Below, piece after piece: positions 26,214 to 47,271 of a stretch of 64,000 nt of DNA. The notes below the pieces were generated by a model, which saw only the letters and a list, made by a program, of their open reading frames with translations, did no database searches and had not been told where the DNA came from. Each line of letters starts with the position of its first letter. The stretch's first letter is position 1. Position numbers and translations under genes: made by a program. Origin of the DNA: Alphaproteobacteria bacterium (lineage in GTDB: Bacteria > Pseudomonadota > Alphaproteobacteria > MPNO01); NCBI GenBank assembly GCA_965248835.1, contig CBDFLJ010000001.1, forward strand, positions 1,024,001-1,088,000. Direction: 5' to 3'.

Positions 26214-28826
26214 ATGAACGAACAGAAAGAAGAAACAACACCGAAGAAGAGGCTCGTCCTGTCGCGGCCCGGCCGGCTGGAGCTCAAGAAGACAGTCGAC
26301 GGCGGCCAGGTCCGGCAGAGCTTCTCGCACGGCCGGACCAAGTCGGTCGCCGTCGAGGTGCGCCGCAAGCGGACCTATACCCAGGCCGCCGACGGCGCGA
26401 TGACCGAAGTGAACGCTGCCCAGGAGGCGGCTGCCGAGGCGCTCAAGGTCGCCGGGAGCGAAGCTGCGGTCGACGCGCTGGTTGAAGACGAAAAGCGTAC
26501 ACCGCCGCGCGAGCTCACCGAGGGCGAGAAGGCCGCGCGGGCACGGGCGCTGTCGGGCTTGAAGCACCAGGAAGCCGAGGACGATGCGCGGCGCGAGGTC
26601 GAGGAGGAGCGCGCCCGCGCCGAGGCGGAAACTGCGCGGCTCGCCGAGGAACAGCACCGTCGCACCGAAGTGGAAGAGGAAGCCAAGAGGCGGGAATCGG
26701 GCGATGCCGCGGAGTCTGCCGCAGCGCCGCCGGCCGAGCCCGAGGGTCTCGTGCAGGACCACCAGGCGATCGCCGAGGCGCAGGCCGCGAAGCCCGAGAC
26801 CGGAAGCCAGCCTGCGGCCCGGGCGGGCGAGCCTGCGACTCCGTCGGAAGCCGACGAGGACGGCGAGCGCGGCCGCGGCCGCAGGACCGGACGAGTCGAG
26901 CCGCGCCGGCCGCCGGCGAAACGGGGTGAGCCCAAGCGCCGCGCCGGCCGGCTTACCATCGCCCAGGCGCTCAACGAGGAGGAGCGCGTGCGCAGCCTCG
27001 CCTCGTTGCGGCGGCTGCGCGAGCGCGAGAAGCGCGCCCAGCGCAATTTGGGCGAGCCGGCCGCCAAGATCGTTCGCGACGTCGTGCTGCCCGAGACGAT
27101 CACCGTCCAGGATCTCGCAAACCGGATGGCTCAGCGCAGCGCCGATGTCATCAAGGCGCTGACGAAGCTCAACGTGATGGCAACCATCAATCAGGCGGTC
27201 GATGCGGACACCGCCGAACTCGTCGTCGCCGAGTTCGGGCACAAGGCCAAGCGGGTCAGCGATGCCGACGTGGAGATCGGCCTCATGGGCGAAGAAGATC
27301 CAGACACCGACAAGCTTCCGCGCCCGCCGGTGGTCACCGTGATGGGCCACGTCGATCACGGCAAGACCTCGCTGCTGGATGCGATCCGCAACACATCGGT
27401 GGTCTCCGGCGAGGCCGGCGGCATCACCCAGCATATCGGCGCCTATCAGGTCCACCTGGACCGCGGCGAGCCGATCACCTTCATCGACACCCCGGGCCAT
27501 GCGGCCTTCACCGCCATGCGGGCCCGCGGCGCCAACGCCACCGACATCGTGGTCCTGGTGGTGGCCGCCGATGACGGCGTGATGCCGCAGACGATCGAGG
27601 CGATCGACCACGCCAAGGCAGCCGGCGTGCCGATCATTGTCGCGGTCAACAAGATCGACCGGCCCAACGCCGATCCCACGAGGGTGCGCAACGAGCTGCT
27701 CCAGCACGAGCTGGTGGTCGAGGAGTTCGGCGGCGAAGTGCTGTCGGTCGAAGTCTCGGCGACCGAAGGGACCAACCTGGACAAGTTGCTGGAGACGATC
27801 CTGCTGCAGGCGGAGCTCCTGGAGCTCAAGGCCAACCCGAACCGCTCAGCGGAGGGCGTGATCGTGGAGTCCAGGCTTGAGCGCGGGCGCGGACCGGTGA
27901 CCACCCTGCTGGTCCAGCGCGGTACGCTGCGCGCCGGCGAAATCGTCGTCGCCGGCCAGGAATGGGGCCGGATACGGGCGATCTTCGATGACACCGGCGG
28001 GCAGATCGACAACGCCGGACCGGCGCGGCCGGTCGAGATCCTGGGGCTCGGCGGCACGCCGAACGCGGGCGAGGCGTTCGGCGTCGTCGAGAACGAGGCC
28101 CGCGCGCGCGAGATCACCGAGTTCCGCGCCCGCCGCGAGCGCGAGTCCAGGGTGAAGATGGCCAGCCGCGGTACCATGGAGCAGATCTTCGAGAGCTTCG
28201 GCAAGGAAGAGACCAAAGAGTTCGCCATCGTCATCAAGGCGGACGTGCAGGGGTCGGTCGAAGCGATCAGGGCGGCCGCCGAGAAGCTTTCCAACGAGGA
28301 GGTCGCGGTCCGCATCCTTCATGCCGGCGTCGGCGGGATCAACGAATCCGACATCACGCTGGCCAAGGCCTCGAACGCCATCGTCTTAGGCTTCAATGTC
28401 CGCGCCAATCCGCAGGCCCGCGCGATGGCCGATCAGGACCATGTCGAGGTGCGCTACTACGCCGTGATCTACGACGTGCTCGACGACATCAAGGCGGTTT
28501 TGAGCGGGATGCTGTCGCCGATCAAGCGCGAGCACTTCTTGGGCAACGCGGAGATCCTCCAGGTCTTCAACATCTCCAAGCTCGGCCGCGTCGCCGGGTG
28601 CCGGGTGAGCGAGGGGCTGGTGCGCCGGGGCGCGCGGGTGCGCCTGCTGCGCGACAACGTGGTGATCCACGAGGGCACGCTGTCGACGCTGCGCCGGTTC
28701 AAGGACGAGGTGCGCGAGGTCCGCGACGGGCTGGAATGCGGCATGGGGTTCGAACACTACCAGGATCTCAAGGAGCACGACGTCATCGAGTGCTTCGAGG
28801 TCGAGGAGGTCGCCCGAACGCTGTAA
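26214..28826 (+). CDS. infB: translation initiation factor IF-2
   Basis: [32 protein letters not shown]. Confidence 0.99.
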
Positions 28827-29301: not shown

Positions 29302-30220
29302 GCGCGGGGGCCGGCCGATCCACGGCTGGGTGGTCATCGACAAGCCCGCCGGCATGTCCTCGGCCCGGGTCGTCGCCAGGGTCCGCGGCCTGACCGAGGC
29401 GGCAAAGGCCGGCCATGCCGGGACGCTCGATCCACTGGCCACCGGCGTCCTGCCGATCGCGCTCGGCGAGGCAACCAAGACCGTGGCCTGGGTGATCGAC
29501 GGCCGCAAGCGCTATCGCTTCACCATCCGCTGGGGCGAGGCGCGCGATACCGACGACGCCGAGGGCGCGGTGATCGCGACCAGCGACCTGCGGCCCGGCG
29601 CCGCGGCGATCACCGCGGCGTTGCCCGCTTTCCGCGGCACCGTCGTCCAGCGTCCGCCGCGCTATTCCGCGATCAAGCTCGCGGGCCAACGGTCCTACGC
29701 GTTGGCCCGCGCGAAGGCCGACGCCGAACCGCCGCCGCGCGCGGTCGAGGTCGATGCGCTGGATCTGGTCGCGGTCATCGACGCGGACCACGCGGTCTTC
29801 GAGATGCGCTGCGGCAAGGGCACCTATGTCAGAAGCATCGCCCGCGACCTCGCCCGGGCTCTGGGCGGGGTGGGCCATGTCGCGGAACTCAGGCGCCTGG
29901 CGGTCGGCCGCTTTTCCGCCGAGGCCGCGATTTCGCTAGATAAACTCGAAGCGCTCGTGCATATTGCGCCGCCGCAGGATTACCTGCTGCCGATCGAGAC
30001 GGCGCTGGACGACATCCCGGCGCTCGCCCTGTCGGAGACGCAGGCCTCCTTGCTCAGGCATGGACGACCGGTACGGATCGAGGCCGCAGGCCGCAGGTCC
30101 GTCGCTGCCGAGGGGCTCGGCGAAGGCGCGATCGTCTTCGTGCTCGCCGGCGGCAGGCCGGTCGCGCTGGCGCGCATCGAGCGTGGCGAGATCCGCCCGA
30201 CGCGCGTGCTCAACCTTTGA
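29291..30220 (+). CDS. truB: tRNA pseudouridine(55) synthase
   Basis: [37 protein letters not shown]. Confidence 0.97.
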
Positions 30221-30234
30221 AGTCGGAGTCTACG

Positions 30235-30504
30235 ATGTCGATCACTTCCGCTCGCAAGGCCGAGCTCGTTACCGAATACGCAACCGCTCCCGCCGATACC
30301 GGCTCGCCCGAGGTCCAGGTCGCGATCCTGTCCGAGAGGATCCGGAACCTCACCGAGCACCTGAAGGAGCACAAGAAGGATTCCCATTCCCGCCGCGGGC
30401 TTTTGATGATGGTCGGCCAGCGGCGGCGGCTGCTCGATTATCTCAAGCGCAAAGACCAGCCCCGCTACACCGCGCTCATCGGGCGGCTCGGACTCAGGCG
30501 CTGA
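30235..30504 (+). CDS. rpsO: 30S ribosomal protein S15
   Basis: [35 protein letters not shown]. Confidence 0.99.
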
Positions 30505-30680
30505 GCCCGAGGCCGCCGCCCGGTAGGGCGCCTTGCCGGTCCAACCGGACGCGAAGCCGGCCCGTGCCCATATCGGCGCGCGGCGCGCTTGCCCCCGCAA
30601 TTTCGCTTTTGTCGACTTTCATCGGTTTGACGTACGGTCCGCCGCATAGGGCGGCGGGCTCTTGAGGGAAGGATACTGAA

Positions 30681-32819
30681 ATGTTTACCACGCACCGGAA
30701 GGAACTGACCTGGGGCGGCCGCAAGCTGGTCATGGAGACCGGCAAGATCGCCCGCCAGGCCGACGGCGCGGTGCTCGTCACCTATGGCGAGACCACGGTC
30801 CTGTGCACCGCCGTCGCGCAGAAGGAGGCCAAGCTAGGCATCGACTTCTTTCCGCTGACGGTCAATTACCAGGAGAAGGCGTTCGCAGCCGGGCGCATTC
30901 CCGGCGGGTTCTTCAAGCGCGAGGGAAGGCCCTCGGAGAAGGAGACCCTGACCTCGCGGCTGATCGACCGGCCGATCCGTCCGCTGTTCGCCGAGGGGTT
31001 CCGCAACGAGACGCAGGTCATCTGCACCGTGCTGAGCCACGATCTGGAGAATGATCCCGACATCGTCTCGATGATCGGCGCATCGGCCGCGCTGACGATC
31101 TCGGGCATTCCGTTTCTCGGCCCGATCGGCGGCGCCCGCGTCGGCATGATCGAAGGCGAGTTCGTGCTCAACCCGACGCCCGCCCAGCTCGAGGACTCCA
31201 GGCTCGACATGGTGGTCGCCGGGACCGCGGATGCCGTCCTGATGGTCGAGTCCGAAGCCCAGGCGCTGAGCGAGGAGGAGATGCTGGGCGCGGTGATGTT
31301 CGCCCACCAGGAATCCCAGCCGGTGATCGACGCGATCATCGCGCTCGCCGAAGAGTGCGCCAAGGACCCCTGGGACGTTGCGCCGCCCGATCCGGCGATG
31401 GTCGATGTTGCCGACCGCGTCCGCGCGCTGGCCGAGACCGGCCTGCGCGAGGCCTATGCCGAACAGGTCAAGCAGGCCCGCGTCGAGAAGATCGCCGCTG
31501 CCAAGGCCCAGGCCCGGGAGGCGCTCGCGGAGGACGGCAACGGCGACGCGGTCGCCGGCGCGCTCAAGGGCCTGGAAAAGGACATCGTGCGCCATGCCAT
31601 CCTCGATACCGGCATCCGCATCGACGGCCGCGATACCAGGACCGTCCGGCCGATCGAGGCGGAGGTCGGCATGTTGCCGCGCTCGCACGGCAGTGCGCTG
31701 TTCACCCGCGGCGAGACCCAGGCTGTGGTGGTGGCCACGCTGGGGACCGGACAGGACGAGCAGATCATCGATGCCTTGGAGGGCGAATACCGCGAGCATT
31801 TCCTGCTGCACTACAACTTCCCGCCCTATTCGGTCGGCGAGGCGAGCTTTCTGCGCTCGCCCGGACGGCGCGAGATCGGCCACGGCAAGCTCGCCTGGCG
31901 GGCGATCCGCGCGGTGATGCCGACCAAGGACGCGTTCCCCTATACCCTGCGGGTGGTCTCGGAGATCACCGAGTCCAACGGCTCGTCTTCGATGGCCACG
32001 GTCTGCGGCGCTTCGCTGGCGCTGATGGATGCGGGCGTCCCGCTCAGCGATCCGGTGGCCGGCATCGCCATGGGGCTGATCAAGGAGCAGGACCGGTTTG
32101 CCGTCCTGTCCGACATCCTGGGCGACGAGGACCATCTGGGCGACATGGACTTCAAGGTCGCCGGCACGAGGAACGGGGTGACCGCGCTGCAGATGGACAT
32201 CAAGATCACCGGCATCACAGAGGAGATCATGCGGATCGCGCTGAGCCAGGCGCGCGAAGGCCGGATGTCCATCCTCGACCACATGGACCGGGCGCTGTCC
32301 GCCGCACGCGAGGGGATCAGCGACTACGCGCCGCGGATCACCACATTCACGATTCCCAAGGACAAGATCCGCGAGGTCATCGGCACCGGCGGCAAGGTGA
32401 TCCGCGAGATCTGCGAGGTGACCGGTGCCAAGATCGACATCGAGGACGATGGGACGATCAAGGTCGCCGCAGTTGATTCCGAGGCCGGCACCAGGGCGAT
32501 CGACTGGATCAAGGACATCGTCGCCGAGCCGGAGGTCGGCGCGATCTATTCCGGCAAGGTGGTCAAGGTGGTCGATTTCGGCGCCTTCGTGAACTTCCTG
32601 GGCTCACGCGACGGGCTGGTGCATATCTCCGAACTCGCCCCGCGCCGCGTCGGCAAGGTCACCGACGTCGTCAACGAGGGCGACGAGGTCAAGGTCAAGG
32701 TGCTGGGCATCGACGACCGCGGCAAGGTGCGGCTCAGCCGCAAGGCGGTCGATCAGCAGACCGGCGCGGATCTGTCGGAGGAGCCCCGGCAGGCGGAGGC
32801 CGTAACGAGCGAGGCTTGA
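30681..32819 (+). CDS. pnp: polyribonucleotide nucleotidyltransferase
   Basis: [37 protein letters not shown] and S1 domains. Confidence 0.99.
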
Positions 32820-32871
32820 CCGCACAGCCTGGCTTGGTTCCAGGAAGCGGCGGCGCCCTTGGCAAGCGAAA

Positions 32872-32894
32872 GGGCGGGGTCGTTCACCCCGCCC
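32872..32894. terminator. GC-rich hairpin downstream of pnp
   Basis: GGGCGGGGT-CGTTC-ACCCCGCCC perfect 9-bp stem; weak U tail. Confidence 0.5.
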
Positions 32895-33172
32895 TGACTT
32901 CGCGATGATGTAATTTTTTCCGAAGCTCGCGTCCCGATTCGAGAAGTTTTTGCCAAATGTGATGATTCAGAGTCGATTCGATGGACTTGGTTTACCCGAC
33001 GCGCCACGGCGGTTCCGGTCCCGGCCTGCGCGGTATCGACCGGGCCGGGGCCGGGCATTGCGGCGGGCGCCGCGCCTATGGGGGGCTGGTCGTTTGTCAA
33101 TCGGTTGATATATAGGGTTAATAGAGTCGCGCCCGTAACCTGCAACGGCCCGACAGAAACGGGAGAATTCAC

Positions 33173-34570
33173 CTGAAGCCGTTGAATTCCCTGGTTATTT
33201 CCGGCAAAGAAGTGCCGCCCCTGGTGGAGGGCGGCAAGGGCATCGCGGTGTCCAACGGACAGAGCGCAGGCGCTTGGGCAGCCGCCGGCGGGGTCGGGAC
33301 GTTCTCGGCCGTCAACGCCGATGCCTACGATTCCGACGGCAGGCTGATCCCGGTGCGCTATAGCGGGCGCACGCGCAAGCTGCGCCACGAGGAGCTTCTT
33401 GCCTACGCCGTCCAGGGCGGCATCACCCAGGCGCGCATCGCCCATGAGATGTCCGGCGGCCAGGGCCGGATCCACATGAACGTGCTGTGGGAGATGGGCG
33501 GCTCCGAGCGGGTGCTGCACGGCGTGCTGACCGGTGCCAAGGGGCTGATCCACGGCGTGACCTGCGGCGCCGGCATGCCCTATCGCATCGCCCAGATCGC
33601 CGCGGAGTACGGCGTCCACTATTATCCGATCGTTTCCTCGGCGCGCGCGTTCAAGGCGTTGTGGAAGCGGGCCTACCACAAGTTCGCCGAATGGCTGGGC
33701 GGGGTGGTCTACGAGGATCCGTGGCGCGCCGGCGGCCATAACGGCCTGTCCAACGGCGAGGATCCCGACGCACCGCAGGACCCCTATCCGCGGGTGGCCG
33801 AACTGCGCGAGACCATGACCGAGATGGGGCGCGCCCAGACGCCGATCTTCATGGCCGGCGGCGTATGGTGCCTGCGCGAGTGGGAGGACTGGATCGACAG
33901 TGCCGAACTCGGGCCGATCGCCTTTCAGTTCGGCACGCGCCCGCTCCTGACCCAGGAGAGCCCGATTTCGCCGGAATGGAAGCGCCGGCTGTTGGCGCTC
34001 CAGCCGGGCGACGTCTCGCTCAACAAATTCAGCCCGACGGGGTTCTATTCGTCGGCGGTGTTCAACGACTTTCTCGACGAGCTGAAGCTGCGCTCGGAAC
34101 GCCAGATCGCGATCTCGGCCGAGCCGGTCGGCGGGCTCGCCGAGGAGCTCGTCGTCGGACCGCGCGGACGGCGGGTGTTCGTCACCCATGCGGACCGCAA
34201 GCGGGCCGAGGCGTGGCTCGACAGCGGCTATACCGAAGGCCTGCGCACGCCCGATTCGACGATGATCTTCGTCTCGCACGATAAAGCCCGGGAAATCCGC
34301 ACCGATCAGGCGAACTGCATGGGCTGCCTTTCGGCATGCCAGTTTTCCAACTGGTCGCAGGCCGAGACCGGCACGACCGGGCGCAAGGCCGACCCGCGGT
34401 CCTATTGCATCCAGAAAACCCTGCAGAACATCGCCCATGGCGGTTCGGTCGACGAACAGCTCATGTTCGCCGGCCACAACGCCTACCGGTTCCGCGACGA
34501 CCCGTTTTATTCGAACGGTTTCGTGCCGACCGTCAAACAGCTCGTCGAACGGCTGCATTCGGGCGACTGA
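33173..34570 (+). CDS. nitronate-monooxygenase/FabK-superfamily flavoprotein, FabX/UfaA-like (FMN + Fe-S)
   Basis: LVEGGKGIAVS, GAGMP, AGGHNG, FQFGTR..TQES, SPTG, C-terminal CMGCLSAC...YCI, LMFAGHNAY; start probably CTG 33173 (TTG 33182 alternative). Confidence 0.85.
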   Translation: MKPLNSLVISGKEVPPLVEGGKGIAVSNGQSAGAWAAAGGVGTFSAVNADAYDSDGRLIPVRYSGRTRKLRHEELLAYAVQGGITQARIAHEMSGGQGRIHMNVLWEMGGSERVLHGVLTGAKGLIHGVTCGAGMPYRIAQIAAEYGVHYYPIVSSARAFKALWKRAYHKFAEWLGGVVYEDPWRAGGHNGLSNGEDPDAPQDPYPRVAELRETMTEMGRAQTPIFMAGGVWCLREWEDWIDSAELGPIAFQFGTRPLLTQESPISPEWKRRLLALQPGDVSLNKFSPTGFYSSAVFNDFLDELKLRSERQIAISAEPVGGLAEELVVGPRGRRVFVTHADRKRAEAWLDSGYTEGLRTPDSTMIFVSHDKAREIRTDQANCMGCLSACQFSNWSQAETGTTGRKADPRSYCIQKTLQNIAHGGSVDEQLMFAGHNAYRFRDDPFYSNGFVPTVKQLVERLHSGD

Positions 34571-34594
34571 GCGTCGGAATCGCGTTCGGCGCGA

Positions 34595-34611
34595 ATTTGA
34601 CTTGTTCCAAA
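34595..34611. promoter_or_regulatory. weak ICE (Irr box)-like site upstream of irr
   Basis: ATTTGACTTGTTCCAAA vs TTTRGAAYNRTTCYAAA; right half perfect, 3 mismatches in left half. Confidence 0.4.
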
Positions 34612-34671
34612 CTGCGCCCGTCACTATTGTAACAGAAGTGTAATGATGTGGCCGGTTGACGAGTTTCGGCG

Positions 34672-35088
34672 ATGCAACGACCCTACACGCCGCTGATCGA
34701 GATGCTCAAGCGCCACGGCCTGCGCCCGACGCGCCAGCGCTTGGCGCTGACCAGGCTGCTGTTCGCCGGCGCCAACCGCCATGTCAGCGCCGAGAGCCTT
34801 CACGAGGAGGTGCTGCGCGACGGGGCGAGCGTTTCGCTGGCGACCGTCTACAACACCTTGCACCAGTTCACCGCCGTCGGCCTGCTGCGCGAGGTTATGG
34901 TCGATCCGAACCGATCCTACTTCGACACCAACACGACAGATCACCATCACCTTTATTTCGAGGACACCGGTCGCCTCGAAGACCTCGAGCCCACCGCCGT
35001 GCGGATCAGCAACCTGCCCGATCCACCCGCCGGAACGACGATCAGCCGGGTCGATCTGGTCATCCGGGTCACTGCCCGCCCGGACTGA
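34672..35088 (+). CDS. irr: iron response regulator Irr (Fur family)
   Basis: GLRPTRQRLAL, VSLATVYNTLHQFT..GLLREV, SYFDTN..DHHH. Confidence 0.93.
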   Translation: MQRPYTPLIEMLKRHGLRPTRQRLALTRLLFAGANRHVSAESLHEEVLRDGASVSLATVYNTLHQFTAVGLLREVMVDPNRSYFDTNTTDHHHLYFEDTGRLEDLEPTAVRISNLPDPPAGTTISRVDLVIRVTARPD

Positions 35089-35118
35089 CCGGGTTGCCGC
35101 CGACGGTGGATAAGGATT

Positions 35119-35135
35119 GTTAGAACAATTCCAAG
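35119..35135. promoter_or_regulatory. ICE (iron control element, Irr-binding) upstream of katG
   Basis: GTTAGAACAATTCCAAG matches TTTRGAAYNRTTCYAAA at 15 of 17 positions. Confidence 0.75.
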
Positions 35136-35138
35136 CTA

Positions 35139-35167
35139 TTGACCAACCCGTCCCGACGTCATATAAA
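35139..35167 (+). promoter_or_regulatory. sigma70-type promoter for katG
   Basis: TTGACC-17 nt-TATAAA, 3 bp downstream of the ICE box. Confidence 0.7.
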
Positions 35168-35274
35168 TATCCCTGCCGACAGCTTCCGGGGGTGTCTTTG
35201 CGAGGCCGAGATCCGTGGGGGTTGGCGTGAACGCATGAAGAGCAGGGATGAATGCCTGCGCTTGAGGGAACTAA

Positions 35275-37506
<2,232 letters not shown>

Positions 37507-37633
37507 TCTCAGCCGAAAGGTCTTCGAGGGCTTCTAGAGAGCAGCCGCGACTGGGCGTAGGGCGATCAGGATCAGATCGAGGCTACGCAAATCCTACGCA
37601 AGCCTGTGGAAACCCTCGAGGCCGGTGGAAGAC

Positions 37634-37825
37634 ATGGACAAGAAATCCGGGTTAAAGGGTCTAAGGCCGAGCAGAATCTGAAGGCTGCCTTCGCCGGCGA
37701 ATCGCAGGCCAACCGGCGCTACCTCTATTTCGCCCAGAAGGCGGACGTGGAGGGCTACAATGACGTCGTCGCGGTGTTCCGCTCGACCGCCGAGGGCGAG
37801 ACCGGCCAGGCCCATGGCCATCACC
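37634..37825 (+). pseudogene. rbr: rubrerythrin, N-terminal remnant
   Basis: [56 protein letters not shown]; ATG 37634 is out of frame with this body (1-nt loss near LKG), and similarity stops after the first iron-ligand pair. Confidence 0.85.
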
Positions 37826-37927
37826 GTGGACGGCGCGGCCGCGGCCGGCATCGGCAATCCGAACTACGGCCACATGGCGGTCATGCCCGAAACGACGCGC
37901 GCAGCACTGACCGGCGATCTCGATTAA
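37826..37927 (+). pseudogene. DUF3501-family protein, C-terminal remnant
   Basis: [33 protein letters not shown] resembles the DUF3501 C-terminus as recalled (HPNYxHMAVMPExVRxALxxDFD); DUF3501 normally accompanies rubrerythrin. Confidence 0.6.
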
Positions 37928-37937
37928 CCGATCCTTG

Positions 37938-37967
37938 GCGGGGGTTCGAATCCTGCCGGGGCTACCA
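37938..37967 (+). other. tRNA 3'-end fragment (T arm, acceptor strand, CCA); possible att site
   Basis: GGTTCGAATCCTGCCGGGGCTACCA; no D arm or anticodon arm upstream. Confidence 0.7.
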
Positions 37968-37969
37968 AA

Positions 37970-38357
37970 TCAGAGCGTGTGCAGACCGAGATGCTTCGCG
38001 ACCGCGTCGAAATCCCGGTCGGCATGAAGCAAACGGTGTCCGTTCTCCATGCAGAAGGTCGCGATCAGCATGTCGATGGTCTTGCGAACGGTAACACCCC
38101 TGGCGCAAAGAGCACGGTAATTGCGGGCACTGGCCAGGGCGATGCTGCGGCCGACCATGGGCTCGAAAATGAGCGTATCCAACGCTGCGCGCGCGGCGAA
38201 GGTCGCGGTCGTCGCGAAAGCCTTGCAGAACCTCCGCAAAGATGAGATCGCCGACCAAGACCGGTTCTATGCCGAGGATTTCGTCGAGCAGCGCGGTCTC
38301 ACGAGTCTCGACGCCGTTGAAGTAGTCGATCCATACCGAGGAATCGACGACGATCAC
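37970..38357 (-). pseudogene. vapC: VapC PIN-domain toxin, frameshifted
   Basis: MIVVDSSVWIDYF...AEVLQGFR in one frame; RKTIDMLIATFC...LLHADRDF in another; shift near 38190. Confidence 0.85.
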
Positions 38358-38377
38358 CTGTCTCGCCGCATGCGGTC
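38354..38377 (-). pseudogene. last codons of a VapB antitoxin, truncated at the IS630 remnant
   Basis: DRMRRDR*, with TGA overlapping the vapC GTG as in coupled TA operons. Confidence 0.5.
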
Positions 38378-39091
38378 ATGCGGGAGCAGCCGGACATCAC
38401 GCTGGCGGAGCCGCAAGGCCGGCTGGCCGCCGAGAAGGCGGTCGCGATCTCGTTGCAGGCGATCAATGAGACGCTCAGGGCGCTGGGCTACAGCTTTAAA
38501 AAAACTTCGCGGGAGGGCGAACAGGACCGTCCCGACATTGCCGTCAAGCGCTGGCACTGGCGCCGCTGGCAGCACTGGCTGAGACCGGAGCCAAGACCAA
38601 CATGGCCCGGCTGCGCGGGCGCTGTCCCCGCGGCCAACGCCTGAACGCCACCCTGCCCTGGGGCCACTGGAAGACCACCACGTTCGTCGCCGGGCTGCGC
38701 CTGGATGGCTTGCACGCTCCCATGGTGCTCGACGGCGCCATGGACGGCGACGCTTTCAGGACCTACGTCGAACAGATCCTGGCGCCTTGCCTGCGGCCCG
38801 GTGATGTCGTCGTCATGGACAACCTGTCGGCCCACAAGGTCGCGGGCGTGCGTCAGGCCATCAAGGCGCGCGGCGCGTTCCTGCTCTATCTGCCGGCCTA
38901 CTCACCCGAGCTCAACCCCATCGAACAGGCCTTTGCCAAGCTCAAGGCGCTGCTCCGAAAGGCCGCCGCCAGAACCATCGACACGCTCGAAGCCGCCATC
39001 GCAACAGCGCTCGAAAACTTCACCCCCAATGAATGCGCCAACTACTTTACAAACTCGGGATACAAGCCGAATTGATCCGAAAATGCGCTAG
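38378..39091 (+). mobile_element. IS630-family element remnant (truncated transposase and right end)
   Basis: QPDITLAE...YSFKKT with an A-run slip site; HWKTTTFVAGLR, VVVMDNLSAHK, YLPAYSPELNPIEQAFAKLK; ends ...GAAAATGCGCTAG. Confidence 0.9.
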
Positions 39092-40079
39092 CAGGGTCTG
39101 AAAAACGGCCAGTTGCGGTCGGGTTGGTTGTTTTGAACGGGTTGTCGATGGCGTGGTTAGGGGTTCGAGGTCGGATCGTGGCGTGGATGGGATGGGGTTC
39201 GGCGGCTGTCGGGCATCTGCGCCGCGGCGATGAGTTTGGGCAGCCGGACCAGGTTGTAGGCGGCGGCGGTCAGGGTGAACATCCAGCCCACCCGGTCGAG
39301 CCCGCGATGCCGGGTCTTGGCCAACCCGCCGGTTCTTGATCCAGCCGAAGCCCTCCTCGATGCGCTTGCGCAGCCGCTGGCTCGCGGCGTAACGAATGCC
39401 GGGTGGTGCGCCGGTCGATCCGGGTCTTGCGCCGCTTACCGGTCTTGCTCAGGCGGCGTCGACGGCACGGCGCGGTCGCCAACGCCTCGACAAGGTCGCC
39501 TTGTCGGCGCCGAGCGTGATCCGTCGCCTTTTGCTGCGGCGCCCCAGCATGGCCAGCGCCGCCTCCCGCTCGGCGGTCGGTGGCCCGGCCAGCGCCATCG
39601 ACGATCAGGGCGTTGCCGTTCTCCATCAGCAGATGGCCCATCAAGCCGGCCATCGCAACACGCGTGGGTCGCATTCGCGCGCCGCTCGCCGCGGAAGTCG
39701 CGCTCGGCGTTGCGCCCGGCGGGCGGCGCGTCATCGTCGCCGCCATCTTTGCGGCGGAAGCTCTTCATCGACGCCCAGGCCTCGATCAGCGTGCCGCGCG
39801 AAAAGTGCTCCTCCGAAACCCGGCTTGCGCCGCCAGGAACCATCGACACGCTTCGAGAAGCCGCACACCGGGTCGCGAACAGCGCAAGAGGTTGTAGTCC
39901 AGCGCTCCATCAAAACGGATGGTGTTGCAGCAGAAGCGCCCGCAGCACCCCCAATGCGAATGCGCTCGAAAACTACTTTCACCAGAGCCCGGACAAACGG
40001 ATGGTCGGGCGACGTAGCAAGCCCGCCGCCGCGTTCGTCCTCGCCGAATCCAGCACCGATGATCCGAAAATGCGCTAGC
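39073..40079 (+). repeat. 20-bp exact direct repeat of the IS630 end (39073-39092 and 40060-40079)
   Basis: TGATCCGAAAATGCGCTAGC occurs twice; 39832-39980 also contains scrambled pieces of the IS630 3' region. Confidence 0.9.
39092..39830 (-). mobile_element. IS5-family element remnant with multiple indels, beginning at CTAG
   Basis: EHFS..GTLIEAWASMKSFRRKD, DFRGERRANATH, GHLLMEN, GWMFTLTAAAYNLVRLPKL in shifting frames; terminus CAGGGTCTGAAAAA. Confidence 0.8.
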
Positions 40080-41090
40080 GCTCGCCACGCAGCTCCACGA
40101 TGCGCTTGTGGACCGCGATCAGGAACTTGTCGGCCTGGCCCGGGACGTCGATCGGGTCGCCGAAGGTGATCTTGTTGCGCTGCTGCGCCTCGACCATCGG
40201 GATGTCCTCGGTAAGGATCGTCGTCTCCTGCTCGCGGCGCATGTCCTCGTCATTGGGATAGCCGCCGTCCAGCGCGAGGTCGCGGGTAAACGCGAAAAAG
40301 TAGTGGCTCGACGTCTCGGTCTCGGGCGTCATGACGTGGTCGTGGTTGATGGTGATCCTGTTCTCCTCGTTCTCCATCACCAGCTCGATATTGACCGTGT
40401 TCGGCGGCCGTCAGTTCTGCAAGGTCGTGCGCGTGACCGGCTTGGTGAACCCGCCCCAGGCCGCGGCCATCGGCCCCAGCGCGACGTTCTTCAGCACCCG
40501 CCGGCTGTGGACCGAGCCCGGCATTGTCCAGGTCTCCATCTCCTGGCGGACGGCGTCGGTCTCGCCCCTCTGGCCGGCGCGCGAGCCGAAGCTGCCGGCA
40601 TGGAGAAAATCGGCATGGCTGACGTCCAGCAGGTTGTCGGCCATGAGCTGGTCGTTGGCCTGGGCGTGGAACCGGCTGAGAATGGACGAGCGGTCATCGG
40701 CCACCAGCCAGGGCATCTCCGGGATCATCGCCGGATCGGCCCTGGACGCATATCGCCCAGCCAGGTCCAGACGAACCCCCAGTGCGCCTCGATCGGGTAG
40801 CTCTTGATCCGCGCGTTGCGCGAGACCGTCTCCTGGTGGGGGACGTGGACGCAGCGCCCGTCGGCGGCCACCACCCAGCCGTGATAGCCGCACATGATCT
40901 CATCGCCGATCACCCTGCCCATCGACAGCGGTGCCTGGCGGTGCGGACAGCGATTCTCCAGCGCCACCAGCGTGCCGGACCTGGCAGTCTGGAACAGGAC
41001 GATCGGCTGGTTGCACACCACCCGCTCGATCGGCTGGCTCGAAAGCTCAGAGGCGCGAGCGACGCAGTACCAGATGTCTTCGAAGAACAT
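40075..41090 (-). pseudogene. Rieske non-heme iron oxygenase alpha subunit (VanA-like), two frameshifts
   Basis: CPHR...CGYHGW Rieske motif; DNLLDVSHADFLH; HVMTPET...ED; frame changes near 40750 and 40410 (may be sequencing errors). Confidence 0.82.
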
Positions 41091-41371
41091 GTTCGCGACC
41101 CCGTCATCGGACTCTGCTTGGCATTCCCTATTGTGAGATTTTAGCCCTGTACATGTGTCTGGCAACGACCGGACCCCAGTCAGGCAGGTCCCGGCACGTG
41201 ACTATTCCCCGCCCGGGAGCCGATCGCCACCGGCACGAAGGTGATGGAGCGCTTCGATAATCTCAATGGGTCATGCCTAGCTGAGTGTCACTGGATGGCG
41301 TTCGAGGCTGGATCGGCCGTCCTGGGTTGGTCTAGGTTCGAGCGTCGATCGGTGGAGAGTCGGGAGAGGCC

Positions 41372-42187
41372 ATGCTGACGCTATACCATCAGGGAAGCTC
41401 GGTCTGCGCGGCCAAGGCGCGGATCGTGCTCCATGAGAAGGGGTGTGAGTGGAAGGGCGAGTATGTCGACGTGCTCAAGGGCGAGCAATTCCAGGATTGG
41501 TATCTGGCGCTCAACCCGAACGCGGTCGTGCCGACCCTGGTCGACGACGGCCGGGTGATCATCGAATCGACGGTGATCTGCGAGTATCTCGACGACGTCT
41601 TTCCCGACCCGCCGCTCAAGTCCACCGATCCGTATGACCTGGCCATGATGCGGATCTGGACCAAGCGGATCGACGAGCGGCTGCACCCGATGACCAGCGT
41701 GCTGACCTATTCCGCGTCGCACCGGCACACGATCCTCGACAACAACACGGCGGAGCAGGTCGAGGCGATCATCAACGAGACCCGCGATCCGGTGAAGCGC
41801 CAACGCAAGCGCGAATGGATCGAGCTTGGGATCGAAGCGCCGAGTGCACGCGCGGCCGTCGTCGAATTCGAAAAGACCCTGGCCGACATGGAAGAGACGC
41901 TCTCGCGCACGCCGTGGCTCGCCGGCGATGCCTACTCGCTCGCCGATGTCGGCATGACGCCCTATGTCAACCGGTTGTCGATGCTGGGGATGGAAGGATT
42001 TTGGAACGGCCGTGCGCATGTCGCGGACTGGTTCGCGCGAGTGCGCAGCCGCGAAAGCATCATGCCCGCGCTGATCGCCGCCGTTCCCGACGACCTGACC
42101 CGTTCGCTTGCCGACAACGGCGCTCGGAGCTGGCCCAGGGTCGAGGCGATGCTGGAGACCGTCCGCGCGGCCGCCGCCGGAGCCTAG
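41372..42187 (+). CDS. glutathione S-transferase family protein
   Basis: SSVCAAKARIVLHEKG, LNPNAVVPTL, ESTVICEYLD, WLAGDAYSLAD. Confidence 0.95.
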   Translation: MLTLYHQGSSVCAAKARIVLHEKGCEWKGEYVDVLKGEQFQDWYLALNPNAVVPTLVDDGRVIIESTVICEYLDDVFPDPPLKSTDPYDLAMMRIWTKRIDERLHPMTSVLTYSASHRHTILDNNTAEQVEAIINETRDPVKRQRKREWIELGIEAPSARAAVVEFEKTLADMEETLSRTPWLAGDAYSLADVGMTPYVNRLSMLGMEGFWNGRAHVADWFARVRSRESIMPALIAAVPDDLTRSLADNGARSWPRVEAMLETVRAAAAGA

Positions 42188-42311
42188 GTGCCCCGAGTCA
42201 GCCGGCCGCGGACCGACCGGTAGGCCGGCTCCGGCGAGGTGCCGGTGATCCCGTTCGATGCGGAGCTCCGGTCGGGACCGGTCGGAGCATGACGAAAAAT
42301 GCACGAACCGA

Positions 42312-42324
42312 AATCAAGCCGTTG
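42312..42324 (+). promoter_or_regulatory. IHF consensus site
   Basis: AATCAAGCCGTTG = WATCAANNNNTTR, with A tracts upstream. Confidence 0.5.
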
Positions 42325-42470
42325 AAAACTCAGCCCTTTTTCCAAGGACCTTTTTATGCCTCCATTCTGGCGATTCCGGCAAGCCGGCAAACAATCGGAT
42401 CATAAGTCCAGACTGCGAATGGCGGCGTTTGCCACAGCCGCTGAACCCTTACGCGCGCGCGAGGATGCGG

Positions 42471-42556
42471 ATTCCTACGCACTTGACGGCCGGTTCCTAT
42501 TTTACTTGACGGGGATTCCTACAACATTTGACCGCGAATCCTAGGCACTTGACCGT
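42471..42556. repeat. four imperfect direct repeats at exact 22-bp period (iteron-like)
   Basis: TCCTA at 42473, 42495, 42517, 42539, each followed by TTGAC (42483, 42506, 42528, 42549). Confidence 0.85.
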
Positions 42557-42784
42557 CACGGCTGTGCCGGTGGGGTTTCTCCCTTGAGTTGATGCGAGGG
42601 GCCGGCCGGTGGCCGGCCCGAGGCGAGCGTAAGCGAGCCCCGGTTGATATTCAAAGGCCTGTCGGGCGCGGCGACAAGCCCCGTCATGAGGCATGCCGCC
42701 GCGCCGGCCCGGCGGACGATCAAACGGGGGGAAACGGGCGCCACCCGGAGGCGGCGCCGAGTGCTCAACCGACGTCGACCGCGC

Positions 42785-43798
42785 CTACTTGTTGGGATCG
42801 TAGAGCTTCGATTTCAGGGTCTGGTAGTCCACGATAAACTTGTCGGCCAGGGCATCGTTCTCCGCCCACTTCGCGCCGTAGATCGTCCGGACGTAGGCAT
42901 CGCGGTATTCGCCTTCGAGCTTGAGCCACTGCACCCCGGCCTTGGCGAGCGCCGCGTCGTCGCGCCGGCCGAGCCGGATCACCGACTCGTCGGCGGTCGT
43001 TTCGTATTGCCGGGCCATCTTCTCGAGGAAGGCCTGCTCCTCGCTAGTCATCGAATCCCACTTCTTCTTGTTGACCAGCACCAACATCGTGGCGCCGAAG
43101 AACGACGGCTCGACCCGGTATTTGAGGAACCTCCCCCATCCGTAGGTGTTAACCGAACCCCAGGGCCAGGCCAGGCCCTCGACCACGCCGCGCTCGAGCG
43201 CGGAGTAGACGTCGCTCGGCGAAATGACGATCGGGGTCGCGCCCATCTTGCGCATGAAGGCCTTGTATAGGCCGGTGGAGCGCATCTTCACGCCGGTCAG
43301 GTCGATCCCGGTCGTCTTGCTGAGCTTGGGCTTGAACCGCGTATAGACGTAGAATCGCTGCCCGTTCTGGAAGGTCCAGGCCAGGATCCGTGAGTTGAGG
43401 CCCTTGTCCCAGGCCTCCTGCATCATGTCCCAGGCGCCGTTGGAGCGGATCTCGTCGAGCGACTTGTTGTGCGCGCCGGGCAACCGGCCCTCGGCGAGGA
43501 TGCCCGAGTAGTAGGTGCCCGGGCAGTAGATCATGTCGACCAGCCCACGCTGTATGGCGCTGCCCTGACCCTTCCAGGGAATAACCTCCGGCCCGCCCCT
43601 GTAGCGGATACTCACCGGGCCGTTGGCCTTGTTGATCGGGTCGATGAAGTGCTCATGCAGCGCGTTGACGTAGTCGTGGTTGCGCTGGAAGCAGGCCAGA
43701 GCCTGCAACTGGGTGGCAGCGACCGCCGGGATGCTCCAGGCGGTGAGCGCCACACCGGCCGCCGCGACCGTGAGCGTGATGTTCGATCTGGCCGTCAT
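42785..43798 (-). CDS. dctP: TRAP transporter solute-binding protein DctP
   Basis: Signal peptide, GGPEVIP, GLVDM, DLTGVKMRS, DVYSALERGVVEG, VNKKKWDSM. Confidence 0.9.
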   Translation of the reverse strand: MTARSNITLTVAAAGVALTAWSIPAVAATQLQALACFQRNHDYVNALHEHFIDPINKANGPVSIRYRGGPEVIPWKGQGSAIQRGLVDMIYCPGTYYSGILAEGRLPGAHNKSLDEIRSNGAWDMMQEAWDKGLNSRILAWTFQNGQRFYVYTRFKPKLSKTTGIDLTGVKMRSTGLYKAFMRKMGATPIVISPSDVYSALERGVVEGLAWPWGSVNTYGWGRFLKYRVEPSFFGATMLVLVNKKKWDSMTSEEQAFLEKMARQYETTADESVIRLGRRDDAALAKAGVQWLKLEGEYRDAYVRTIYGAKWAENDALADKFIVDYQTLKSKLYDPNK

Positions 43799-44073
43799 TG
43801 GTACGTTCCCTTCTGTGTTTCCCCGCATAGGTTTCCCCGCATAACAGGCATCCGCGCGACCGGCTTCCGATTCCTGCCGCCCATCCGGCCGGTTCTTTCG
43901 TCCTTCGCGGGCGGCGGCGTTGAGCCGCGGTTTCACGCTTGCTTTTGCACGTTGGACGCATCAGCCTATCGTCGAGAGCTTAGGCGGGCCCGGCGCAACA
44001 CACAAGTGCGCCACGCCGGATCCCGTGGCGTCCGGGGTCGAACCCGGACGAAATGCGACGGCGAAGGAGCGGC

Positions 44074-44598
44074 ATGGGGGGTGTCATCCGCGCGTACAAC
44101 GCGCTCATCAACCTGCTGCGCTTCCTTGCCGGCGTCATCGTCTTCGGCATCTTCGTGCTGATCTGTGTCGACGTGCTACTCCGGCTGTTCGGCGGCTATG
44201 TCGGCATGCAGCCCTGGACCTACTCGGTGCCGGTGGTCGAATACGGCCTCCTGTGGTTCGCCATGCTGGCCGCCCCCTACCTGGTGCGGATCAAGGGCCA
44301 CGTCTTCATCGCGGCGCTGACCGAAATCGTCCCGCCTCGGGTGCGATGGGGAATGGCCAAGCTCTCCTATCTGGGCTGCATCGTCGCGGCCTGCATCTTC
44401 GCCTGGTACTCCTGGGGCGTGCTGCTGGAGGCGATGCAGCGCGGGACGCTCGACATCCGCGCCGAGGAGATCCCGCTCTGGTACCTGCTCCTCCCGATGC
44501 CGTTCTGCTTCGCGCTGGTGGCGGTCGAGTTTGGCCGCTATCTGATCGGCATCGATTCCATGTACGGGGACCGGACCGAGGTGCAGGAGAACGTCTGA
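44074..44598 (+). CDS. dctQ: TRAP transporter small permease DctQ
   Basis: Four TMs, DVLLR, EYGLLW..MLAAPYL...GHV. Confidence 0.9.
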   Translation: MGGVIRAYNALINLLRFLAGVIVFGIFVLICVDVLLRLFGGYVGMQPWTYSVPVVEYGLLWFAMLAAPYLVRIKGHVFIAALTEIVPPRVRWGMAKLSYLGCIVAACIFAWYSWGVLLEAMQRGTLDIRAEEIPLWYLLLPMPFCFALVAVEFGRYLIGIDSMYGDRTEVQENV

Positions 44599-44600
44599 CC

Positions 44601-45914
44601 GTGGAGTGGTACTGGGCATTCATTCTACTGCTCGGACTGATCGTCGGCATGATGGCGCTCGGCATGCCGGTCGCGTTCGCATTCCTGTCGACCAACATCC
44701 TGGGCTGGGTCTACTTCAACGACTGGAACCTCAACGTGCTGCCGCAGGTGGTCGACAACTCGACCGTCCTGATCAGCCGGTTCACCCTGGGCCCGGTCCC
44801 GATGTTCATCATGATGGGCTCGCTGTTCTTCCATACCGGGCTCGCGATACGGGTGTTCGATGGTCTGGAGGTGCTGTTCGGTCGGCTGCCCGGCCGGCTG
44901 TGCTTCCTGACAGTCGCCGGCGGCACGATCTTCTCCACCCTGACCGGTTCGTCGATGGCCAACACCGCCATGCTGGGCTCGCTGATGGTGCCGGAGATGC
45001 AGCGCCGCGGCTACAGCCGGCGCATGTCGATGGGCCCGATCCTGGGCACCGGCGGGCTTGCCATGATCATCCCGCCGTCCGCGCTCGGCGTGCTGCTGGC
45101 CAGCGTCGCCAGCATCGATGTCGGCAAGCTGCTGATCGCGGGGTTCATCCCGGGCTTCACCCTGGCCTTGCTCTATGCCGGCATGATCCTCCTGCAGCTT
45201 TGGCTTTTGCCGGGCTCGGCGCCGGCCTACGACGTCGAGCGGACCACCTGGGGCGAAAAGGCACGGGTCGTTGCCACCAACATCCTGCCGATGAGCTTCG
45301 TCATCTTCATGGTGATCGGCTTCATCATCTTCGGCTGGGCGACGCCCACGGAGGCCGCGGCGATCGGCGTGCTGTCCGTGATGATCCTGGCCGCCGCCTA
45401 CCGACGGCTGACCGTCGCGGCGATCTTCGTCGCCGTCGACGCCACCTTGAAGGTCGGTGCGATGGTGTTCTTCATCCTGATGAACTCCACCGTGTTCAGC
45501 CAGCTTCTCGCGTTCTCGGGCGCCAGCCAGGGGATGCTCGAATGGGTGACCGGCTTCGAGGTCCACCGGCTGACCATCCTGTTTGCGATGTTCTGCGTCC
45601 TGCTCTTCCTCGGCATGTTCATGGACGCCACCTCGATGATGCTGATCACGGTACCGATCTTCTTCCCGCTGGCGAACTTGCTCGGCTTCGACCTGATCTG
45701 GTTCGGCCTGTTCGTGCTCATCACCATCGAGATGGCGGGCACCACGCCGCCCTTCGGGCTTTTGCTCTACGTCATGATGGGGGTCGCGCCGAAGGGTACC
45801 ACGCTTGTCCACGTGGCGAGCGCGGCCGCGCCGTTCCTGGTGTGCGACACGGTGCTCATCCTGATCTTGGTCGCGTTCCCGCCGCTCGCGCTTTGGCTGC
45901 CGAGCCTGATGTGA
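44601..45914 (+). CDS. dctM: TRAP transporter large permease DctM
   Basis: GMPVAFA, PMFIMMG, GSSMAN, IIPPS, TPTEAA, TPPFG; GTG start. Confidence 0.95.
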   Translation: MEWYWAFILLLGLIVGMMALGMPVAFAFLSTNILGWVYFNDWNLNVLPQVVDNSTVLISRFTLGPVPMFIMMGSLFFHTGLAIRVFDGLEVLFGRLPGRLCFLTVAGGTIFSTLTGSSMANTAMLGSLMVPEMQRRGYSRRMSMGPILGTGGLAMIIPPSALGVLLASVASIDVGKLLIAGFIPGFTLALLYAGMILLQLWLLPGSAPAYDVERTTWGEKARVVATNILPMSFVIFMVIGFIIFGWATPTEAAAIGVLSVMILAAAYRRLTVAAIFVAVDATLKVGAMVFFILMNSTVFSQLLAFSGASQGMLEWVTGFEVHRLTILFAMFCVLLFLGMFMDATSMMLITVPIFFPLANLLGFDLIWFGLFVLITIEMAGTTPPFGLLLYVMMGVAPKGTTLVHVASAAAPFLVCDTVLILILVAFPPLALWLPSLM

Positions 45915-45977
45915 GCGGCCGAAGCCGGCGAGGCACGCGCCCGTTCCGGCGTGAGCCCGATCGCCAGGCTTCCAGCC

Positions 45978-46084
45978 ATGCAGCGCTTCGGACTTATCCT
46001 GTTCATCGCGGTCTCGCAGTTCGCCGGGACCGTGATGCATGTGATGGTCGGCGTGACGCTGCCGACGGTGGGGCGCGAACTGGG
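45978..46084 (+). pseudogene. MFS transporter first-helix remnant
   Basis: MQRFGLILFIAVSQFAGTVMHVMVGVTLPTVGRELG resembles an EmrB/QacA-type start; similarity ends abruptly. Confidence 0.55.
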
Positions 46085-46180
46085 GAGAACCTGTTCACGA
46101 TCATGGGGCCGTCCAGCCCCTCGGTGCTCGCCAACATGGTTTCCGCTATCGAGCAGCACGTCGAGTGGATTGCCGGCTGC
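46085..46180 (+). pseudogene. Baeyer-Villiger (cyclohexanone-type) monooxygenase internal fragment
   Basis: ENLFTIMGPSSPSVLANMVSAIEQHVEWIAGC matches the conserved BVMO segment PNLFxITGPGSPSVLxNMxxxIEQHVEWI. Confidence 0.75.
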
Positions 46181-46725
46181 CGAGCGCACGCGGCAGGCCG
46201 TAGCCGGAAAGTCATTCCCCGGTTCTTCAACGGACGGCGCGGCAGGCTTCGCGGCTTCGAAGCACGGCCCAGACGATCCTTGCGTTCCTGTCCGGACAAC
46301 GTCGCTTCTTCGACCGCACGAAGCCGCTGCCTGATGGCAGCGGAGCTCGTGGACAGAGCGCCCGCAGGGCTGGATCGGCGCGGGTGCCCCCGAGTGTGAT
46401 TGGATTATTCCGGCAAGCAACAAGCCGCAGCGGCACAAAAACTCTCGGCAATTCAGAAGGTCGCAACGGATCAGACCGGGATTTCGATCAAATGTCGGTC
46501 TCGGTGGTTGCGAGCCCCCGCAATCGGCTCACAAGATCGATCTGGTAATGCGCGCCGATAAGCTTCTTGCTGGGGTGCGGCGTTTTCTTCTCAATGCCGC
46601 CCGCGCCACCCGAAAAGTCAGCATCACCGTCGCCGTGCGCGCCACTGCGCCGGATCAAGGCGAGCGTGCATTGTGTGAAAACACTCCGCGAACCCGACCG
46701 CTTCGGAGGCTGCCGTCCGGAAAGC

Positions 46726-46977
46726 TCAGGCGGCCCCGGCAAGAAGCTTCACGGTCTTCCGGGCGGTGTGCCCGGCATTTCGCATGACAACCTCAAGCTC
46801 GTAATGGGATTGGAGGTTGAGCTGGAATGAAGCGGACACGCCGAAGGCCCGCTCCAGCCTGAGCGCGGTATCGGCCGTGATGCCGCGCCGACCGCGCATG
46901 ATGCCGCTGAAGCGGTTTTGCGCAATGCCGTCGGCGCTGAATGCATAGGGCTCGATGAAATCCTCGTGGAGGGTCAC
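46726..46977 (-). pseudogene. HigA-family antitoxin (XRE HTH), degenerate
   Basis: LHEDFIEP...RGRRGITADTALRLERAFGVSASFQLNLQSHYEL; lacks the HPGE start and part of the HTH; no toxin nearby. Confidence 0.75.
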
Positions 46978-47271
46978 GCCCGCAGACCATGCCCGATCAT
47001 CGGCGATGTTCGTTCTCGATTCCCGTGACCGGAGGGTCGCTTCGTCAACACGTGCTGCGGGACGACGGCGGGCGGGAGGAGGCCGGGGCTCGGCGCGCGC
47101 GTCTGTCGGGAAACCTTCGAAGGCGATGAAACTCCGGGCACCTTCCGAGGATCAGATCGCGATCACAAGCGAATGTCGGTTTCGGTCATTGCGGGCCGGT
47201 CCCGCCGGCACGGCTGGCGCCTTGCTGCGAATTCGGTGATGCTTGGGGTGCAGGCAGGAAGGACGGCGCGC

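Follow-up and report, generated by a model that had tools for sequence, protein, structure and literature searches.

A long FabX-like protein in the slot between pnp and irr as a candidate replacement for FabA and FabB in Alphaproteobacteria

A stretch of 64,000 nucleotides from the genome of an Alphaproteobacteria bacterium (contig CBDFLJ010000001.1, positions 1,024,001 to 1,088,000; the window in what follows) carries a single gene between pnp and irr, and we refer to the protein of this open reading frame (ORF; P0001) as X. From its sequence, its modelled structure and the analogy to Helicobacter pylori FabX, X is likely to be a decanoyl-acyl carrier protein (decanoyl-ACP) dehydrogenase/isomerase that replaces FabA and FabB and serves as the double-bond enzyme of unsaturated fatty acid (UFA) synthesis, both here and in most genomes of the class. 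The basis for this reading is homology, fold and residue conservation, the finding of no FabA, FabB or membrane desaturase, mutual exclusion with FabA and FabB, and the use of the same chromosomal slot. FabA/FabB is the canonical route in Escherichia coli, Caulobacter and Sinorhizobium, and it is commonly taught as the UFA route in alpha- and gammaproteobacteria.

Gene, fold and conserved residues of X

The X ORF runs from 33182 to 34570 on the plus strand and encodes 462 amino acids from a TTG codon. An alternative start, the CTG at 33173, lies three codons upstream and would give 465 amino acids. This CTG is placed 7 nt 3′ of a GGGAG that close relatives share, and a length of 465 amino acids with MKPL at the start is seen in many homologues. 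Judged from these features, translation may start at either codon, and the gene is given here as 33173..34570 (+). The other ORFs listed between pnp and irr all overlap the X frame, and X was the one scanned against family libraries. A preliminary description of the window had X as the sole gene of this interval, with a GGHNG motif and a CxxCxxxC...YCI cluster, which agrees with the ORF and its translation.

In Pfam, X has a weak match to the nitronate monooxygenase (NMO) family (PF03060, 33 bits, cut-off 28) and no other; such a pass shows membership of this broad family and nothing narrower. The sole NCBIfam match, to FabK (TIGR03151), reached 22.8 bits (cut-off 453.1). When X was compared by phmmer to all solved protein chains, the best match was H. 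pylori FabX (E 2e-15, query residues 13-301 and 399-437), while FabK reached E 0.0087 and the NMO and PA1024 chains E 0.11. FabX (HP0773; PDB 7E1Q, 9LT5 and others) is a decanoyl-ACP dehydrogenase and trans-2-to-cis-3-decenoyl-ACP isomerase with flavin mononucleotide (FMN) and a [4Fe-4S] cluster.

An AlphaFold2 model of X built with 32 sequences had a predicted local distance difference test score (pLDDT) of 90.7 and a predicted template modelling score of 0.89. When this model was searched with Foldseek, five FabX entries came out on top (E 7e-21 to 2e-19), with FabK next (5e-14). VIA-align superimposed it on FabX with Z 40.0, aligning 352 of 366 residues (chain 5-363) at a root-mean-square deviation of 2.8 and 27% identity. 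The corresponding Z for FabK was 30.8-32.5, and the best of these alignments covered 298 residues. Because the alignment to FabX spans chain 5-363, the iron-sulphur subdomain, which is absent from FabK, is also matched by X. FabK, an FMN-dependent enoyl-ACP reductase II, and NMO/PA1024 share the barrel fold and the position of the catalytic histidine with X (Z 30.7-32.5), but have no subdomain with a cysteine cluster; FabK is reported to carry an NAD(P)H-binding part where FabX has its iron-sulphur subdomain (PMC8626469). Both the sequence E-values and the predicted fold (Foldseek, VIA) place X with FabX, and not with FabK or true NMOs, the two groupings that the preliminary description had named as speaking against its proposal.

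Like FabX, X combines an NMO-type TIM barrel with a C-terminal iron-sulphur subdomain, and it retains the histidine of the GGH motif, the residues that contact FMN, four cysteines and a [YF]CI motif at the fourth ligand. In FabX, H182 is reported to be catalytic, FMN to be held by N99, E175, Q240 and T243, and the [4Fe-4S] cluster to be bound by C300, C304, C308 and C320 (PMC8626469). In the phmmer alignment, N99, E175, H182, Q240, T243 and C320 of FabX correspond to N100, E178, H186, Q249, T252 and C409 of X. We assessed conservation in 81 sequences, namely X of the window and the proteins of 80 related loci. N100, E178, H186, Q249, T252, C379, C382, C386 and C409 were invariant (81/81), as was each residue of the GGHNG motif (G184-G185-H186-N187-G188; 33731..33745, +), in which H186 stands opposite the catalytic H182 of FabX. 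The four cysteines lie in C379-x2-C382-x3-C386 (CMGCLSAC, residues 379-386) and Y408-C409-I410, at 34316..34408 (+), and are predicted to be the [4Fe-4S] ligands. These cysteines and the counterparts of the catalytic and FMN-binding residues are also kept in the divergent members P0123, P0124, P0130 and P0138. In P0138 (39% identity, JGI), W stands at many of the positions that are occupied by G in all other members. As a guess, this pattern would fit a protein from an organism that reads TGA as Gly (code 25) and that was translated with TGA as W.

Directly before the first cysteine, X contains an inserted subdomain of about 85 residues (approximately 296-378; 34067..34315, +), visible as a gap in the FabX alignment and predicted to consist of strands and two helices. 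Folded alone, it gave a pLDDT of 90.9. A comparison with 48,161 solved chains returned a best Z of 4.5 and no recognised fold, which does not in itself show that the fold is new. Conservation is lower in the insert than in the remainder of X, with mean column identities of 0.71 and 0.84, respectively.

A library of 1.84 billion proteins yielded 172 relatives of X at E <= 1e-30. These include five full-length clusters at 50% identity, and the other listed matches were shorter or partial. Other classes of the phylum have short homologues of 369-413 amino acids, which share 27-30% identity with X and have a Cx5Cx3C or Cx3Cx3C motif; the insert is absent from them and from FabX. Two of these short homologues match FabX over their own full length at E 1e-78 and 1e-50. 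The Cx5Cx3C forms are putatively UfaA-type. UfaA of Neisseria gonorrhoeae (NGO1024) belongs to the same superfamily as X; it is reported to be needed for anaerobic UFA synthesis and to occur in UFA-making bacteria without FabA (PMC11300592, PMC4549310). X itself falls outside the set of proteins of more than 50% identity that were counted as FabX homologues by Zhou et al. 2021 (PMC8626469). With 462 amino acids compared to 363, it is about 100 residues longer than FabX. Taken at the level of sequence, X forms a long branch of its own within the FabX/UfaA group and is not a close FabX. The label FabX/UfaA-like in the preliminary description is therefore sound as to superfamily and fold, but not as to closeness, given an identity of about 27%, the extra subdomain and a different cysteine spacing.

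X and the FabA/FabB route across genomes

The assembly that contains the window is 4.89 Mb in size, consists of 2 contigs and has a completeness of 100. A single PF07977 match was found in this genome and it is FabZ (NF000582, 185.6 bits), with the FabA model giving 21.9 bits against a cut-off of 124. Similarly, the one strong ketoacyl synthase is FabF (TIGR03150, 648 bits; FabB model 344 bits, cut-off 630), and its gene sits in a fabG-acpP-fabF cluster. FabI is encoded elsewhere in the genome and scored 424 bits, the next short-chain dehydrogenase/reductase scoring 81.5. The membrane desaturase family PF00487 had no match in the genome, and the same search found the family in four control genomes. 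The genome thus resembles that of a FabX organism, with FabZ, FabF and FabI and no FabA or FabB found. According to the preliminary description, fabA or fabB elsewhere in the genome would have spoken against a replacement; what was found is one FabZ and one FabF, and neither FabA nor FabB.

We then searched 401 genomes of the class, always as the same set, for X (cut-off E 1e-40), FabA (NF003509), FabB (NF005935) and FabI. X was present in 234 genomes and FabA in 142, while 25 had neither. The expected phyletic anticorrelation was borne out, as none of the 401 genomes had both X and FabA and none of the 234 genomes with X had FabB. FabB occurred in 139 genomes, all of which had FabA. Among the full-length matches listed for the class genomes, identity to X was about 59-75%. 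When the count was restricted to genomes with a completeness of 90% or more and a contamination of 5% or less (n=336), X was found in 198, FabA in 121 and FabB in 120. Two unpublished genomes with X (G040 and G240) are part of the set; without them X occurs in 232/399 and nothing else changes. Both states are found within three families (f8, f78 and f113) and within the window's own order, never in one genome.

FabI was detected in 391/401 genomes, including 228 of the 234 with X. Of the six genomes with X and without FabI, three were less than 85% complete. Two FabI matches were seen in some genomes with FabA (e.g. G169 and G309), as opposed to one in G000 and in some genomes with X. If general, an extra FabI in genomes with FabA would fit the loss of an operon fabI along with fabA and fabB. 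Most of the 25 genomes that lack both X and FabA are either small (0.5-2 Mb) or incomplete. In five of them that are of good quality, no X homologue was found even at E 1e-3.

Outside the class, a hand count gave about 105 genomes from three families with a full-length X (60-70% identity) and 63 with weak short-type matches alone. Five of the genomes with X outside the class were checked, and each had one FabZ and no FabA. The X proteins of these outside families are only 68-72% identical to any named locus. The X loci from outside the class (L116-L143) showed neither pnp nor irr within 1.5-kb flanks.

The slot between pnp and irr and its surroundings

In the window, X is bordered upstream by pnp (polynucleotide phosphorylase; 30681..32819, +; Pfam RNase_PH, PNPase, KH and S1 domains) and downstream by irr (iron response regulator of the Fur family; 34672..35088, +), which matches NF045678 (IrrA) at 193.8 bits (cut-off 150) and NF045677 at 178.4 bits, also above its cut-off. 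To describe this slot in other genomes, we used 80 X loci from named public genomes, many of which end at contig ends. pnp was found upstream of X in 65/80 loci and irr downstream in 50/80, and a rubrerythrin-like gene follows irr in 31/80. The nearest named record comes from a Defluviicoccus metagenome-assembled genome (81%), and the others are mostly from Rhodospirillales, Dongiaceae, Stellaceae, Azospirillum, Skermanella and Holosporales.

For comparison, 20 kb around fabA were taken from 20 genomes with FabA. pnp was present in 11 of these loci and irr in 10; both flanked fabA in six loci, and five had neither. In all five annotated loci, pnp is directly followed by fabA, fabB (680-728 bits) and fabI, and in four of the five the trio extends to irr, with no irr found in L087. 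L087 and L088 are from the two other genomes of the window's order, and both have the arrangement pnp-fabA-fabB-fabI(-irr-rubrerythrin) with the trio on the pnp strand. In three loci from other families (L089, L091 and L095), fabA-fabB-fabI is on the strand opposite pnp. The presence of two orientations of the trio in one slot suggests an inversion or more than one arrival. The preliminary description had given such an order for Sinorhizobium and Brucella; in the genomes with FabA sampled here, the trio does lie in the slot.

In Sinorhizobium meliloti, fabA-fabB-fabI2 is reported to be a co-transcribed operon for UFA synthesis, with fabI2 specialised for UFA (PMC11616126). As this trio constitutes a UFA operon, X would replace a whole UFA-synthesis module. 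Besides the same pnp-irr slot, X and FabA/FabB (with FabI2) would share the same role in the pathway, in which cis-3-decenoyl-ACP is made and then elongated. FabA is unrelated to X, being a hot-dog dehydratase/isomerase that acts on 3-hydroxydecanoyl-ACP without a redox step. The proposal of the preliminary description, that X may be a UFA route replacing FabA/FabB at the same locus, is thus supported by the phyletic profile, the slot, the fold and the gene content of the genome itself; each of the computational checks that it had suggested gave a favourable outcome.

The irr-rubrerythrin pair was also considered as a sign of peroxide defence, and hence as a clue to H2O2 production by X. This idea was rejected, since the rubrerythrin-like gene also follows irr in loci with FabA and the same pair flanks fabA there.

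Of the 353-nt spacer between pnp and X, one part is conserved between the window and four close relatives. This element (33083..33123, +), a block of invariant columns in the alignment, reads GCTGGyCGTyTG...ATATATAG..TTA, and the remainder of the spacer could not be aligned in these five sequences. The element is probably a promoter or operator of X. A sigma-70 consensus scan returned no promoter, and terminator-like sites occurred at chance level. For 32700-35200, no RNA dataset was listed, and the stretch is contained in four DNA-type runs that come from a single study. A search of 30400-35400 against Rfam gave no match that reached its gathering score. The two sub-threshold matches, RF01730 (22.3 bits, gathering 51) and RF00457 (15.8 bits, gathering 100), both lie at 32762-32962, over the end of pnp and the pnp-X spacer.

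pnp is the last gene of a run upstream of X that comprises infB (26214-28826), rbfA, truB, rpsO (30217-30504) and pnp. Downstream of irr, the window carries katG (catalase-peroxidase; 35317..37506, +; NF011635, 1273.6 bits), which lies outside the conserved slot. It is followed by the rubrerythrin-like ORF (37606..38094, +; Pfam Rubrerythrin, residues 24-67) that is the usual neighbour of irr. katG stands between irr and the rubrerythrin-like gene here, yet it was found in only 5/80 related loci, so that the gene order suggests a local insertion splitting the usual pair. After the rubrerythrin-like ORF, the region 38121-39075 contains a 153-amino-acid ORF without a family match and then a fragment of a DDE_3 transposase (PF13358, 96 bits). 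In 2-kb windows, the G+C content is 0.636-0.660 across 32001-48000, compared to about 0.67-0.71 in the flanks. A site resembling an Irr box, GTTAGAACAATTCCAAG, is located at 35119-35135, between irr and katG and not upstream of X. It has three mismatches to an Irr-box consensus, and because a match as good was obtained in 8/100 shuffles, it is weak.

Proposed reaction, alternative explanations and meaning

Following FabX, X would bind decanoyl-ACP, which would be oxidised at FMN to trans-2-decenoyl-ACP with His186 as the catalytic residue, and would then isomerise the product to cis-3-decenoyl-ACP. The two electrons would pass from FMN to the [4Fe-4S] cluster and from there to an acceptor. The single FabF would elongate the cis-3 intermediate, and FabZ together with FabI would complete the cycles. 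The single FabF of H. pylori is likewise said to elongate this intermediate. For the electron acceptor there are two candidates, O2, as for FabX in vitro, or one that is independent of O2, as for Neisseria UfaA. FabX is reported to use O2 in vitro and to produce superoxide (PMC8626469), and UfaA is reported to act anaerobically, without its acceptor having been identified (PMC11300592). The insert lies beside the cluster, and one may speculate that it is a docking site for the acceptor. For X, the substrate and its chain length, the activity as an isomerase, the cofactors and the electron acceptor are all inferred from homology, residue conservation and genomic pattern.

Several observations weigh against X as the replacement of FabA and FabB. 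X shares 26-27% identity with FabX, and its cysteines are spaced Cx2Cx3C...x22...C instead of Cx3Cx3C...x11...C. HMMER left the first three cysteines of X unaligned to FabX, and only C409 was aligned by sequence, to C320. T130 of FabX, which contacts ACP, is replaced by an invariant Tyr134 in X, and the ACP-docking residue R164 is matched by K167, a position with Lys in 69 of the 81 sequences and Arg in the other 12. The insert has no counterpart in FabX, so the chemistry or the partners of X may differ. In the genome of the window, whose assembly has a contamination score of 9.5%, no double-bond enzyme besides X was found among those searched for (FabA, FabB and PF00487), soluble desaturases (PF03405) and FabM-type enzymes having been left out of the search. 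Related genomes are not independent, so that a Fisher test on these counts exaggerates the association, most families are uniform and only three of those sampled are mixed, and the zero overlap could stem mostly from a few ancient switches. The 25/401 genomes with neither gene imply that other UFA routes, or none, exist in the class.

Some of these differences would also fit an enzyme of fatty acid synthesis with another chemistry, such as the desaturation of a longer acyl-ACP or of an acyl-lipid, or a reaction with a partner docked on the insert, to which the C10 scheme of FabX would not apply. In favour of this are the insert of about 85 residues and unrecognised fold adjoining the cluster ligands, the altered cysteine spacing, the identity to FabX of only 27%, and the short FabX/UfaA-type homologues, which are far nearer to FabX than X is. 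We nevertheless regard this explanation as unlikely, as X retains the catalytic and FMN-binding residues and the whole FabX fold, and the exclusion, which extends to FabB in addition to FabA, is in keeping with a route whose entry point is the same cis-3-decenoyl stage. The least probable of the explanations considered is a FabK-type enoyl-ACP reductase, which would have replaced the operon fabI rather than FabA and FabB. FabK does come second among the fold matches (Z 30.8-32.5) and is the sole NCBIfam family that X hits, and the displaced operon does include a fabI. The hit, however, reaches 22.8 bits against a cut-off of 453, and the place of FabK's NAD(P)H-binding part is taken in X by an iron-sulphur subdomain of the FabX type. 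In addition, FabI is present both in this genome (424 bits) and in 228/234 genomes with X, and a FabK-type role would leave the missing FabA and FabB unexplained.

A housekeeping oxidoreductase unrelated to lipids is also very improbable. X would in that case be an NMO or, like PA1024, an NADH:acceptor reductase; lineage history would account for the exclusion, and the shared slot would be a coincidence. Databases do label X a nitronate monooxygenase or a YrpB-like flavin oxidoreductase, it passes the Pfam NMO cut-off (33 vs 28 bits), and most sampled families are uniform in their X/FabA state. Against this stand the E-values of the NMO and PA1024 chains (0.11, compared to 2e-15 for FabX) and the four invariant cysteines. 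Furthermore, 0/376 genomes have both X and FabA, even inside the three mixed families and the window's order, and the replacement took place at the same slot and involves two orientations. A housekeeping role would also leave the genomes with X without a known double-bond route.

If X is taken as the decanoyl-ACP dehydrogenase/isomerase of these bacteria, a wider picture can be drawn, which we offer tentatively and consider rather doubtful as a whole. X would represent a third branch, made up of long proteins, in the FabX/UfaA group and the main double-bond route of the class (234/401, compared to 142 for FabA). Its insert would dock a cellular electron acceptor, and the enzyme would work without O2 and release no superoxide, unlike FabX in vitro. 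The fabA-fabB-fabI trio would have come later and have ousted X from the slot more than once; both orientations of the trio occur there.

We found no paper that ties FabX, UfaA or this "nitronate monooxygenase" to UFA synthesis in Alphaproteobacteria, and a term search of the Rickettsia metabolic reconstruction PMC5615194 likewise came back empty; Isabella and Clark 2011 and the FabX supplements lay outside the coverage of this search, and an earlier mention of the long clade is possible. In the class genomes sampled, 58% have no FabA/FabB match and carry one very conserved "nitronate monooxygenase" gene instead. If X has the proposed role, an essential step of membrane synthesis would be assigned for many environmental, plant-associated and symbiotic bacteria, and corrections would have to be made to metabolic models and to annotations. 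The electron acceptor of such dehydrogenases would become testable in easily grown aerobes. The slot between pnp and irr would then provide a clean case of operon displacement by an unrelated enzyme at one chromosomal position.

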